A stretch of DNA of 42,197 nt from the sequence record MN850568.1; one strand, 5' to 3'. Under the pieces are notes generated by a model. The model was not told the DNA's origin. It made no database searches and saw only the letters and a program-made list of their open reading frames with translations. This DNA is from Escherichia phage altidsur. A program made the position numbers and the translations under genes. Shown here piece after piece: positions 23,658 to 27,680 of the stretch. The first letter of the stretch is position 1. Every line of letters begins with the position of its first letter.

Positions 23658-24547
23658 CCGCATCTGTATTGAACCGCATGAACTCCATCGTCGAACAGTA
23701 CGTTGACGAGGAAGAACTTGACTTTAACGAAGCCACGTCTGGTGGTGGTAAGCTGCTGCCGGAAGGTAAGGCACTGGCACGTCTGGTTGGCTACATTGAA
23801 GTGGGGCCGAGCGTAACCAAGCAGGCACCGGACAAGCCGCCTGTCAATAAGTTCTTCCTCCAGTTCGCGCTGTGGGGCAAGGCCAAGAACGGCGAGACTT
23901 ACCACGAAGTTGTCAATGGTAAGATGGTGCCGGGCAAGGTGCGCACGCAGTTCATCGCTGTGAAGAAAGACCTCAACAGCAAGTCCGGCGCATACAAACT
24001 GTTCAAGCGTATGAACCCGGACAAGACTGCGAAGCACTTCGCGCAGCTTCTGAACCACACCTTCATCGTTCCGATTATCCACAACGAATCGGGCGAGGGC
24101 GAGAACAAGAAGGTGTACGCCAACATCGACCTTGAGAACATCATGCTCGCGGTTGACCCGGTGACTGACCAGCCGTACCCGGTGCCGGAGGTTGAGGACG
24201 AGACGCTGTTCAAGCTGTTCCTGTGGAACCGTCCGACCAAGGAAGACTGGGAATCCCTGTACATCGAAGGTAAGAACGACGATGGCAAATCCAAGAACTG
24301 GATTCAGGATAAGCTGCTGGAATCTCCAGAGTTCCCCGGCTCTCCGCTTGACCTGCTGCTGAATGGTGCAGGTGCTGGCTCTGCAATCGCTGAGCTGCCG
24401 GAGCTGGGTGACGTGGGTGCGCCGGAGGAAGTGGCCGAGGTCAAGGAAGAAGTGAAGGAGCTGGAGACGGCTGGCGCTGCTGACAAGACCAGCACCAAAG
24501 AGCCGGACGTAACTGGCGAGGCTGACTTCGGGCTGCCGAGTCTGTAA
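23654..24547 (+). CDS. Hypothetical protein with acidic C-terminal tail (possible ssDNA-binding protein), 297 aa
   Basis: ATGA-coupled to the polymerase; C-terminus is strongly acidic (EEVAEVKEEVKELE...GEADFGLPSL), reminiscent of phage SSB tails; assignment speculative. Confidence 0.5.
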   Translation: MTASVLNRMNSIVEQYVDEEELDFNEATSGGGKLLPEGKALARLVGYIEVGPSVTKQAPDKPPVNKFFLQFALWGKAKNGETYHEVVNGKMVPGKVRTQFIAVKKDLNSKSGAYKLFKRMNPDKTAKHFAQLLNHTFIVPIIHNESGEGENKKVYANIDLENIMLAVDPVTDQPYPVPEVEDETLFKLFLWNRPTKEDWESLYIEGKNDDGKSKNWIQDKLLESPEFPGSPLDLLLNGAGAGSAIAELPELGDVGAPEEVAEVKEEVKELETAGAADKTSTKEPDVTGEADFGLPSL

Positions 24548-24566
24548 CTGACGCAGGCACAGGGAC

Positions 24567-25559
24567 GTGCCACGGGGGAAACCAATGAGCAGATTGAAAC
24601 GTCTACTCCACAACGCCGAGGAACTTGATGACCAGTTTGATGGTTACGTGTCTGGTCGTATCCTGCTGTGCGATGCTGACTCCACAGTCTACGTCGCGGC
24701 GGCAACCACGAAGAACATCGAGACAGCGAAGACGCGCTTCTGCTCAGGGGTGCTGACTGCTAAGTTCTTGGCCGCCGCCCAGTCTGTGCGTATCGAGCTG
24801 ACCGCTGCCGAGTGCAGCAAGGCTGGTCGGTACAAGCTGCGCGGTGTCAAGCCGTATCAAGGCAACCGCGACAAGGACAGAAAGCCCGGTCTGGTTGAGC
24901 CGTTGCGTAAGGCGATTGGCCGGAACATGTTCAACGTTCCTGATGGCGAGGACTGGTACGTCCACCTGAACTTTGAGTTCGAGGCAGACGACACCTTAAT
25001 CATGGACGCGTGGACGATTGGGCTGGAGGATGCTGTCATCTACAGTGCGGATAAAGACCTGCGCTGCTGGCCGGGCAGGTTCCTCGACCCATACGATAAC
25101 AAGGTGCTGGAGCCATGCAAAGGTATCGGCACATTGTGGTGGCATGAAACCAAGAGTGACAAGTCGCTCATTGGCCATGGCCCGATATTCTTTTGGGCGC
25201 AGATGCTGATGGGTGACACGGCAGACAACATCGCTGGTGTCAAGAAACTTGGCAAGCAGGCAGCTTACAATATGCTGAACGAGTATCAGGAAACTGATGA
25301 CGAGTCGGCAGTGGCTGAGCTGGTGCTGAGAGAATACATGGTGCGTGACCAGAACCCATGGCCGGAGGCTGTTGCTCTGTGGCTGTACCGCACGCCGACC
25401 TACTCATTCGCAGCTCACTTGAATACGCTGACCTTGAGCAAGGAGCTGCGTATCTGGTTGCATAAGAAATTGAGTGAGGAATGGTATGCGGAAAGTGACT
25501 GGCGCGACCTTGTTGCAGATGCGGAAGAATGCGATGGGCTGTCCTTGCCCACTCTGTAA
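24567..25559 (+). CDS. Putative 5'-3' exonuclease, 330 aa
   Basis: Position between DNA polymerase and endonuclease VII as in T7/phiKMV-type replication modules; size close to T7 gp6; Asp-rich N-terminal region. Call is synteny-based. Confidence 0.5.
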   Translation: MPRGKPMSRLKRLLHNAEELDDQFDGYVSGRILLCDADSTVYVAAATTKNIETAKTRFCSGVLTAKFLAAAQSVRIELTAAECSKAGRYKLRGVKPYQGNRDKDRKPGLVEPLRKAIGRNMFNVPDGEDWYVHLNFEFEADDTLIMDAWTIGLEDAVIYSADKDLRCWPGRFLDPYDNKVLEPCKGIGTLWWHETKSDKSLIGHGPIFFWAQMLMGDTADNIAGVKKLGKQAAYNMLNEYQETDDESAVAELVLREYMVRDQNPWPEAVALWLYRTPTYSFAAHLNTLTLSKELRIWLHKKLSEEWYAESDWRDLVADAEECDGLSLPTL

Positions 25560-25866
25560 CGAGCCGATGGTAGACCTCAAGCTCATGGTTGTTGACCACG
25601 ACCATGTGAGTGGGGAGATTCGCGGGGTCATCTGTCGCTGGTGTAATGCTCAGCTCGGTAAGGTAGAGAACTCTGCCAACCGAGCGAAGCGCCAGCGCAC
25701 TGTGGATGATTGGCTGGACAGCGCTATCGAGTGGCGACGTAAGCAACACACTGGTCTGATGTACCCAACGCACAAGACCGAGGCAGAGAAGAAGGCGGCA
25801 GTAGCCGACAGACGTAAGAAGGCAGCAGCCGCGAAAGCGCGAGCCTTATTGACTAAGGGGAAATGA
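25486..25866 (+). CDS. Endonuclease VII-type (His-Me finger/HNH-like) resolvase
   Basis: CPCPLCNEP...VVDHDHVSGEIRGVICRWCNAQLG matches the T4 endonuclease VII zinc/His-Me motif; start uncertain (25474-25534) and overlaps the exonuclease 3' end out of frame. Confidence 0.7.
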   Translation: MRKVTGATLLQMRKNAMGCPCPLCNEPMVDLKLMVVDHDHVSGEIRGVICRWCNAQLGKVENSANRAKRQRTVDDWLDSAIEWRRKQHTGLMYPTHKTEAEKKAAVADRRKKAAAAKARALLTKGK

Positions 25867-26990
25867 TGACCAAGTTAACGAATCACCAACTCAAAGAAGA
25901 CATTGCCGAAGGGCTTGGCACCAAAGCCATTGCGGATAAGCACGACATGACCGAGAGTGCCATCCGATACCGGAAGCGCCAGCTTGCCAAGAGCGGCTGG
26001 AGTCCTGAGCACGACATGACGAAGGAAGTACCGGAGCCGTATGCAGTCAAGGGTACGTCCACGCTGTACGATAAGGACGGCAACGTTGTCATGCAGTGGG
26101 TGAAGACTGCGCTCGACCGTGAGCAAGAGCTGGCTATGCTACAGGCAGCAGTTGATGCAATCAGTGAGAGCATCGTGCCGGAGCCGCCGCGCTTGTATGC
26201 AGGTCGCACAGCGCCAGCCGATTTGCTTAACCTGTTCGTCCTGACTGACTACCACCTCGGTATGCTGGCGTGGGCTGAGGAGACTGGCGACGACTGGGAT
26301 ATGAAGATTGCGGAAGACCTGCTGGTCAAGTGGTTCGCCGCCGCCATCGACAGTGCGCCGCCAGCTCAGGTTGCTATCTTCGGACAGCTCGGTGACTTCC
26401 TGCACTGGGATGGGCTGGATGCAGTAACGCCGTCGAGTGGTCATGTGCTGGATGCTGACACGCGATTCCAGAAGTTGGTGCGTGTGGCCATTCGAGCGCA
26501 GCGCCGCATCATTGGTATGCTGCTGGAGAAGTTCCCGCAGGTTCACGTAGTGTGTGCCGAGGGCAACCATGACATGGCCAGCTCTATCTGGATGCGTGAG
26601 CTGCTGCATGTACTGTACGCCGACGAGCCGCGTGTTACTGTTGACCGCAGCCCTGACCCGTACTACTGCTATGAGCATGGTGAGACGGCACTGTTCTTCC
26701 ACCATGGCCACAAGCGTAAGGCAGAACAACTGGAGACTGTACTGGTCGCCAAGTTCCGCGAAGTGTATGGCCGAACCAAACATGCTTATGCACACGTTGG
26801 CCACCTGCATCACAAGAAGGTACTGGAGTCTGGTGTTATGGTTGTCGAGCAGCACCGTACGCTGGCGGCGAAGGATGCCTACGCTTCTCGTGGTGGTTGG
26901 CTGAGCGAGCGCAGCGCGAGCGTGATTACGTACCATACCCGGTACGGCGAGGTTGCACGATTCACGATTAGCCCGGAGATGTTAGAGTGA
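25863..26990 (+). CDS. Calcineurin-like metallophosphoesterase with N-terminal HTH-like region, 375 aa
   Basis: Metallophosphatase motifs in order: LGDFLHWDG, AEGNHD, FFHHGH, VGHLHH; N-terminal ~40 aa helix-turn-helix-like. Confidence 0.65.
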   Translation: MMTKLTNHQLKEDIAEGLGTKAIADKHDMTESAIRYRKRQLAKSGWSPEHDMTKEVPEPYAVKGTSTLYDKDGNVVMQWVKTALDREQELAMLQAAVDAISESIVPEPPRLYAGRTAPADLLNLFVLTDYHLGMLAWAEETGDDWDMKIAEDLLVKWFAAAIDSAPPAQVAIFGQLGDFLHWDGLDAVTPSSGHVLDADTRFQKLVRVAIRAQRRIIGMLLEKFPQVHVVCAEGNHDMASSIWMRELLHVLYADEPRVTVDRSPDPYYCYEHGETALFFHHGHKRKAEQLETVLVAKFREVYGRTKHAYAHVGHLHHKKVLESGVMVVEQHRTLAAKDAYASRGGWLSERSASVITYHTRYGEVARFTISPEMLE

Positions 26991-27211
26991 CACGAACCCT
27001 GTACCAAGAAGATGTGGTACAGCTTAAAGAAGATGGCCTCTCGATTGAGTGGGAGGCCAACACTCAGGTTGAGCTGTACAAAGATGGCACCGTCTGCATT
27101 TCTCAGGACGGTGAGGAAGTCTGGTTGCCTTGGGCGTACGTCCGAGACGTTATCTTTGCTCTTGAGGAAGCACACGATGCACATGAAAGACACCGTAGTA
27201 GTAGACCTTGA
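26987..27211 (+). CDS. Small hypothetical protein, 74 aa (GTG start)
   Basis: GTG overlapping the upstream TGA; overlaps the next gene by ~35 nt; weak. Confidence 0.35.
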   Translation: MTRTLYQEDVVQLKEDGLSIEWEANTQVELYKDGTVCISQDGEEVWLPWAYVRDVIFALEEAHDAHERHRSSRP

Positions 27212-27680
27212 TGGTACGCTGGCCGATGGCCGCTGGCGTTTGCACCTGCTGCCTCCACCGGAGCGTCGGCACCTTGACGAAGCGTGGGCCGAGTTCAACT
27301 TGGCTGGCGCTGACGACCCTGCGTTTCAGGATACGATTGACATTGTGAACGCTCTGGCCCTCACGTATCGCATTGTCATCCTGACTGGACGCGGGGCCGT
27401 GGCCCGTGAAGTAACAGAGCAGTGGCTCGACGAAGCTGGCGTTGTTTACGACAAGCTAATCATGAGAGAGATTGGTGACTGCCGTAAGGACACAGAGATG
27501 AAGCTATCCGCTCTGGAGGATATTGGTATCGAGAACATCGTGTGTGCTTTCGATGACCTGCCGCACATCGTGGACTTCATGCGAAGCCTCGGCATCACAG
27601 TGTATGAAGTGACCCGGTACGAGGACAACCATGAGTACGTCCACGCCAATGCCAAATACGATGGAGACAAAGATGAGTAA
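27177..27680 (+). CDS. HAD-superfamily phosphatase (polynucleotide 3'-phosphatase-like), ~167 aa
   Basis: HAD motif I VVVDLDGTLAD near the N-terminus and a late acidic motif (FDDLPH); internal ATG of track ORF 27012..27680. Confidence 0.6.
   Translation: MHMKDTVVVDLDGTLADGRWRLHLLPPPERRHLDEAWAEFNLAGADDPAFQDTIDIVNALALTYRIVILTGRGAVAREVTEQWLDEAGVVYDKLIMREIGDCRKDTEMKLSALEDIGIENIVCAFDDLPHIVDFMRSLGITVYEVTRYEDNHEYVHANAKYDGDKDE

Follow-up and report, generated by a model that had tools for sequence, protein, structure and literature searches.

The endonuclease VII gene of Escherichia phage altidsur very probably starts within the upstream exonuclease gene

The 42,197-nt sequence of Escherichia phage altidsur analysed in this study (MN850568.1; hereafter the window) very probably contains a true overlap between two co-directional genes, in which a gene encoding endonuclease VII begins at ATG 25486, 74 nt inside the 3' end of a 5'-3' exonuclease gene. 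This placement is drawn from comparative sequence analysis, namely from conservation of the start codon and its Shine-Dalgarno (SD) site, frame-specific patterns of substitution, N-terminal homology, and the length and predicted helix of the N-terminus. The original prediction, made from the window alone, had proposed that the endonuclease start overlaps the exonuclease 3' end in another frame, and the comparison with relatives bears this out, with a +1 frame and a shared stretch of 25486-25559. The features of the junction are as follows.

24585-25559, plus strand: 5'-3' exonuclease gene, with ATG 24585 as annotated in phage aldrigsur and stop codon TAA at 25557-25559
25476-25480, plus strand: SD site GAGGA, 5 nt upstream of ATG 25486
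25486-25866, plus strand: proposed endonuclease VII gene (126 aa), from ATG 25486 to stop codon TGA at 25864-25866
25486-25559, plus strand: putative 74-nt dual-coding overlap (exonuclease C-terminal tail and endonuclease VII N-terminus)
25519-25521, plus strand: in-frame ATG (Met12) that is not a start, lacking an SD site and replaced by Leu in 9 of 15 relatives
25534-25536, plus strand: in-frame ATG (Met17), probably an internal Met; six records, among them aldrigsur, annotate it as the start
25546-25557, plus strand: first zinc-ligand pair, Cys21-x-x-Cys24, aligned with T4 Cys23 and Cys26; both columns are invariant in the alignment
25567-25569, plus strand: in-frame ATG (Met28) past the exonuclease stop, not a plausible start; annotated as the start in six relatives

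The window derives from a Bonnellvirus phage (Autographiviridae / Autoscriptoviridae, Stentvirinae), and over 24400-26100 it shares 98.8% identity with Escherichia phage aldrigsur and 80-92% with 18 further records. The order of genes is DNA polymerase, a 297-aa hypothetical protein, the 5'-3' exonuclease, endonuclease VII and a phosphoesterase. In the list of open reading frames (ORFs), that of endonuclease VII spans 25474-25866 and lies in the +1 frame with respect to the exonuclease. The overlap encodes the last 24 residues of the exonuclease in one frame (the C-terminal tail YAESDWRDLVADAEECDGLSLPTL, followed by the stop codon) and, in the +1 frame, what would be the first 24 residues of endonuclease VII (MRKVTGATLLQMRKNAMGCPCPLC). 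The N-terminal stretch MRKVTGATLLQMR belongs to the product of the 25486 start and would be missing if translation began only at ATG 25534.

Candidate start codons were compared across 16 Bonnellvirus genomes (the window and 15 relatives), which align without gaps over 25380-25640. Five in-frame starts lie within the exonuclease gene, GTG 25474, ATG 25486, GTG 25495, ATG 25519 and ATG 25534, while ATG 25567 is found in the same frame 8 nt downstream of the exonuclease stop. The earlier claim that the possible ATGs, at 25474 to 25534, all fall inside the exonuclease is thus right for 25486, 25519 and 25534; however, position 25474 is a GTG, and ATG 25567, which six relatives use, lies outside, such that the statement is true only of starts upstream of the first Cys. 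ATGs 25486, 25534 and 25567 are invariant among the 16 genomes, as is GTG 25495, while position 25519 is CTT or CTA (Leu) in nine of the 15 relatives and position 25474 is GTG, ATG or TGG, the last of these in J8-65 and smaasur. The GAGGA SD site is retained together with ATG 25486 in all 16 genomes.

The predicted duplex between the 16S anti-SD sequence and the region preceding ATG 25486 has an energy of -8.4 kcal/mol in the window (the relatives range from -6.3 to -7.5), compared to -3.5 kcal/mol for 25534, -2.2 for 25474, -1.5 for 25519 and -1.8 for 25567 (full range -1.8 to +0.9); the SD site of ATG 25486 is therefore the sole strong one among the candidates. By way of calibration, the median for the 53 starts annotated in aldrigsur is -6.4 kcal/mol. 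Only two of these are as weak as -3.5, one of them (the second weakest) being the annotated endonuclease start itself, and every one is stronger than the pairing at 25567. A value of -8.4 kcal/mol is reached by only 2.4% of all coding-strand ATGs. RNA folding of 25440-25570 gave a z-score of -0.41, providing no indication of a regulatory hairpin at the start site. Under the proposed arrangement, the exonuclease would be read to TAA 25557-25559 and endonuclease VII would be read in the +1 frame from ATG 25486, where the GAGGA at 25476-25480 would serve ribosome initiation; ribosomes translating the exonuclease may additionally keep this start site open through translational coupling.

Two other readings of the junction were considered and rejected. 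A 177-aa ORF on the minus strand (25240-25773) spans the junction and is not a gene, being interrupted by internal stops in 10 of the 15 relatives. A fusion of exonuclease and endonuclease by frameshifting has no support. In the window and eight relatives, the endonuclease frame has a TGA at 25471-25473, four codons upstream of ATG 25486; in genomes with TGG in place of this TGA, the upstream peptide is not conserved as coding sequence.

The downstream gene was assigned to the endonuclease VII family by Pfam PF02945 (49.7 bits against a cut-off of 23.6, E 3.6e-13) and by phrog_423 'endonuclease VII' (E 1.6e-30), in which residues 7-121 fall on profile positions 9-135. Members of this family are dimeric enzymes that cleave four-way junctions and branched DNA, and the zinc ligands of T4 endonuclease VII are Cys23, Cys26, Cys58 and Cys61. 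In the alignment, Cys21, Cys24, Asp37, His38, His40, Cys53 and Asn54 of the window protein are invariant; Cys21, Cys24 and Cys53 align with T4 Cys23, Cys26 and Cys61, and Asp37, His38, His40 and Asn54 align with T4 Asp40, His41, His43 and Asn62. Cys50 aligns with T4 Cys58 and is replaced by His in some homologues. By alignment to T4, all four zinc ligands and the catalytic His-Me finger residues are present, and the gene product is predicted to be a Holliday-junction or branch resolvase of the T4 gp49 family.

The N-terminal length of the protein is informative with respect to its start. A phmmer search against the PDB chains of T4 endonuclease VII (E 1.3e-5; the T4 reference sequence is identical to 1e7d_A) placed query residue 15 on T4 residue 17, which means that the two N-termini differ by about two residues, and the 25486 product would therefore appear to have a normal N-terminal length for the family. 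The original prediction favoured 25486 on the grounds that T4 endonuclease VII has about 20 residues before its first Cys. The actual figure is 22 residues before Cys23 (PDB 1e7d), in agreement with that estimate; with translation from 25486, the first Cys would be preceded by 18 residues and the Cys aligned with T4 Cys23 by 20. An AlphaFold2 model built from the homologue alignment has a mean pLDDT of 89.4, with residues 1-10 averaging 93, and residues 6-16 are predicted with pLDDT above 90 to form a helix that precedes the first zinc ligand. According to this model, the helix is present only with the 25486 start and would be lost from products of 25534 or 25567. The only significant PDB match of the model in Foldseek was T4 endonuclease VII (1e7l_A; E 7e-4, TM-score 0.61, 106 aligned columns).

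The window protein and T4 endonuclease VII (gp49; PDB 1e7d, 1en7, 2qnc) thus have in common PF02945, the CxxC...CxxC ligands, the D-H-x-H and N residues, the fold, and about 20 N-terminal residues ahead of the first ligand. However, their identity is only about 20-23%, their lengths are 126 and 157 aa, respectively, and the two genes differ in genomic context. In addition, the segment before the first ligand is 20 residues long in the window protein but 22 in T4, and past residue 100 the window protein continues as a basic Lys/Ala-rich helix where T4 has its C-terminal domain.

Closer homologues locate the N-terminus more precisely. A tblastn search with the 126-aa product matched 925 phage records, and in about half of a 60-record spread the local alignments began at query residues 1-3. 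For eleven distant loci the DNA itself was read, and the annotated starts of PhiM1, Prado, ErraM and LKA1 correspond to query residue 1, with that of ZPAH7 one codon earlier. These starts are not in doubt, since these phages have either an overlap of only 1-17 nt with the preceding gene or small ORFs in between. The N-termini read MRKLTRSQV in PhiM1, MRKLTRSQM in ZPAH7 (after the initiator Met), MKRLTAAQV in Prado, MQKLTYSQV in ErraM, MRKLTRTQL in LKA1 and MRKVTGATL in the window, all of them of the form M-[RKQ]-[KR]-[LVI]-T. The alignment with endonuclease VII homologues that had been put forward as a check on the start therefore points to 25486, with MRKVTGATL matching the M-R-K-L/V-T-x-A/S-Q pattern of these proteins. 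The genes in question (LKA1 gp33, PhiM1 gp25, Prado gp20, ErraM gp18 and ZPAH7 gp24) resemble that of the window in the N-terminal M-R-K-L-T-x-S/A-Q motif and in their position downstream of an exonuclease in the replication module, but differ from it in their short overlaps or intervening ORFs and are only 34-44% identical.

Substitution patterns across the overlap were examined with Nei-Gojobori counts for six clade representatives. Over 25486-25533, pN/pS was 0.23 in the endonuclease frame compared to 1.44 in the exonuclease frame, while the unambiguous flanks gave 0.18 where only the exonuclease is encoded and 0.12 where only the endonuclease is. The RZ4 and forsur clades illustrate this pattern through their changes at 25509-25521, as the endonuclease frame keeps T-L-L-Q-(M/L)-R while the exonuclease frame goes from L-V-A-D-A to S-V-A-A-S. 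Columns at exonuclease codon position 3 made up 58% of the variable columns in the exonuclease-only flank, but only 20% in 25486-25533 (Fisher p 0.04) and 19% over the whole overlap (Fisher p 0.006 against the same flank). Variable columns were also fewer in the overlap (16 of 71) than in the exonuclease-only flank (112 of 285; Fisher p 0.009), which is what dual coding would predict. The first 21 nt of the overlap contain just two variable columns (p 0.005 against the exonuclease-only flank), and this near-invariance is compatible with constraint imposed by both frames or by the initiation region. Since 25486-25533 contains only 10 variable columns, and since the sequence pairs are not independent of one another phylogenetically, these statistics are considered supporting evidence for the 25486 start rather than proof. 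As expected of a real overlap, variability is reduced, the endonuclease N-terminus matches that of its orthologues, and the exonuclease stop occupies the same position in all 16 genomes.

Taken with the conserved ATG and GAGGA and the shared N-terminal motif, the endonuclease-frame substitutions upstream of 25534 uphold the original preference for 25486. The accompanying view that the start and the degree of overlap cannot be fixed from sequence is correct for a single genome; however, once relatives are included, the start would appear to be fixable with high confidence.

There are several alternative placements of the start. The most credible, though unlikely, is that both ATG 25486 and ATG 25534 are used, yielding a full-length protein and a nested shorter product, as T4 gene 49 reportedly does. 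Both codons are conserved; however, the weak SD site at 25534 does not favour a second initiation event, no sequence feature requires a second product, and conservation of Met17 needs no role as a start codon, since this residue lies within a conserved peptide.

Initiation only at ATG 25534, giving a 110-aa protein and a 26-nt overlap, is a good deal less probable still. This codon precedes the exonuclease stop by 23 nt, a distance within the reach generally attributed to termination-reinitiation, and it is present in all 16 genomes and used in six GenBank records. That it is conserved fits either reading, however, as it encodes a residue within a conserved peptide. The SD pairing of -3.5 kcal/mol is weak, substitutions in the 16 codons upstream of 25534 behave as in sequence coding in the endonuclease frame, these codons carry the motif seen at the N-terminus of distant homologues, and the shortened product would lose the confidently predicted helix of residues 6-16. 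The use of 25534 in databases also has a plausible technical explanation. Among 14 annotated Bonnellvirus records, the equivalent of 25486 (74-nt overlap) is annotated in two (J8-65 RefSeq and ROV85), that of 25534 (26-nt overlap) in six (aldrigsur, LF82-23, forsur, mellemsur, smaasur and megetsur), and that of 25567 (no overlap) in the other six (Lidtsur RefSeq, glasur, HHU8, Kc261, RZ4 and usur). Prodigal allows overlaps between genes on the same strand only up to 60 bp (PMC2848648); because of this cap a 74-nt overlap is not callable, and the best permitted start is 25534, which is probably the origin of the six 25534 calls. The 25567 calls may come from other pipelines that avoid overlap altogether.

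A start at GTG 25474 or GTG 25495 in place of ATG 25486 is highly improbable. Both codons are in frame, the ORF is open from 25474, and 25495 is conserved throughout; however, 25474 lacks an SD site (-2.2 kcal/mol) and is TGG in J8-65 and smaasur, and GTG 25495 lies 14 nt from GAGGA, a spacing that is too long, and encodes the residue that is L/V/I in the MRK[LVI]T motif and that comes after the initiator Met in homologues. Finally, a start at ATG 25567, which would give an overlap-free protein of 99-100 aa and is a conserved codon used in the six Bonnellvirus records and, in equivalent form, in the RefSeq entry of LIMEzero, can be dismissed almost entirely, as it has no SD site (-1.8 to +0.9 kcal/mol), homology clearly reaches further upstream, and the invariant Cys21 and Cys24 (T4 Cys23 and Cys26) would be removed.

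With the start placed at 25486, 12 of the 14 records are most likely N-terminally short for endonuclease VII, and six Bonnellvirus models as well as the LIMEzero RefSeq model lack two zinc ligands. Two protein families also look like they were built from N-terminally truncated gene models, namely phrog_11865, whose 95 positions match residues 35-120 (window 25588-25845), and phrog_20005, whose 69 positions match residues 57-120 (window 25654-25845). The correct start is already annotated in the J8-65 RefSeq entry: the orthologues J8-65 gp22 (YP_009101371, from the Bonnellvirus type species) and Pantoea phage ROV85 gp49 start exactly as proposed here, and the aligned proteins are 92-96% identical to that of the window, with nothing of substance differing. 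The feature is therefore of a known kind, an ordinary but real gene overlap, and is a matter of annotation rather than new biology. Its value lies mainly in annotation quality, since short models are common among Bonnellvirus phages and occur also in LIMEzero RefSeq and Bp-AMP4, and a resolvase expressed from a shorter database model is predicted to be a defective protein.

The prior for an overlap of 74 nt is low, because a survey of 338 prokaryotic genomes found none that was real above 60 bp; all co-directional overlaps beyond that length were judged to be misannotations, and the longest accepted as real was 56 bp (PMC2478687). The holD/rimI pair of Enterobacteria, which provided that longest accepted case (Palleja et al. 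2008, PMC2478687), resembles the present case in being a conserved co-directional overlap in which both protein ends are conserved, but it spans 32-56 bp and occurs in cellular genomes, compared to 74 nt in the window and 80 nt in LIMEzero, both of which are phages. In LIMEzero (Waewaevirus, the sister genus), whose endonuclease is 66% identical to that of the window, the endonuclease ORF (698-1078 of the extracted locus) has an ATG preceded by AAGGAG (-7.7 kcal/mol) and shares 80 nt with the exonuclease, while the RefSeq model (ORF26) begins after the exonuclease stop and is without the first CxxC. Burkholderia phage Bp-AMP4 offers a further case (701-1078 of its locus), with a GTG start, a GAGGA and a 65-nt overlap with the exonuclease; its annotated gp20c is a 69-aa fragment that lacks the CxxC and DHDH motifs. 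Similar overlaps thus occur elsewhere, and the 80-nt overlap of LIMEzero implies that the long overlap predates Bonnellvirus. The overlap described here represents a modest but well-supported exception to the rule that overlaps of co-directional genes are artefacts when they exceed 60 bp.

The other partner in the overlap is annotated as an exonuclease in relatives and matches phrog_107 (exonuclease; E 3.8e-59) over residues 11-294 of 324, such that the family match ends near nt 25466. The Pfam model 5_3_exonuc (C-terminal SAM fold) scored 31.9 bits, below its cut-off of 40, and the N-terminal domain model had no match. By these profile matches, the whole of the overlapped tail would lie outside the family-conserved exonuclease core. 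Related exonucleases have C-terminal tails that are variable and acidic, and among the distant relatives compared, no alignable homology to the tail was found beyond Bonnellvirus and LIMEzero. The LIMEzero tail is recognisably related (…EPWYVDEDWRAGVSGDADECIGETLPVLP), the two having in common a W-Y..D-W-R...E-C-x-G..L-P-x-L pattern within the acidic tail. In the distal part of the exonuclease tail, pN/pS in the exonuclease frame is 0.8-1.4, and selection on this part may be weak. The overlap would thus encode a variable acidic exonuclease tail on the one hand and the N-terminal helix and first CxxC zinc ligands of the endonuclease on the other. The endonuclease N-terminus is likely to be the ancestral reading, because it is common to T4 and many Autographiviridae.

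It is conceivable, though doubtful, that the overlap of 74-80 nt goes back to the common ancestor of Bonnellvirus and Waewaevirus and has been maintained because both readings matter, with the exonuclease tail being a functional extension overprinted on the ancestral endonuclease N-terminus, and with translation through the start coupling the two nucleases and setting their ratio. If true, this would rank it among the longest same-strand overlaps that are well supported for a pair of conserved enzymes in a tailed phage.

Other gene boundaries in the neighbourhood are also ambiguous. The exonuclease start itself is given as GTG 24567 in the ORF list versus ATG 24585 in the aldrigsur annotation, and the Lidtsur RefSeq exonuclease is much shorter, at 873 nt. 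An extra 65-aa hypothetical ORF is found between the 297-aa gene and the exonuclease in LF82-23, J8-65, Lidtsur, mellemsur, megetsur, RZ4 and smaasur (e.g., at 1348-1545 of locus L002 and 1299-1496 of locus L003), where it overlaps the exonuclease start by 44 nt. This ORF is not annotated in aldrigsur, forsur, glasur, usur, ROV85 or Kc261, and in the window the gap between the 297-aa gene and the exonuclease is only about 37 nt (24548-24585). Further downstream, 26987-27680 may contain another long same-strand overlap or start ambiguity, as the polynucleotide kinase/phosphatase is a 222-aa ORF from 27012 in the ORF list versus a 167-aa product in the aldrigsur annotation. That 167-aa product overlaps the upstream 74-aa gene by 35 nt, which is the longest annotated overlap of the aldrigsur genome.
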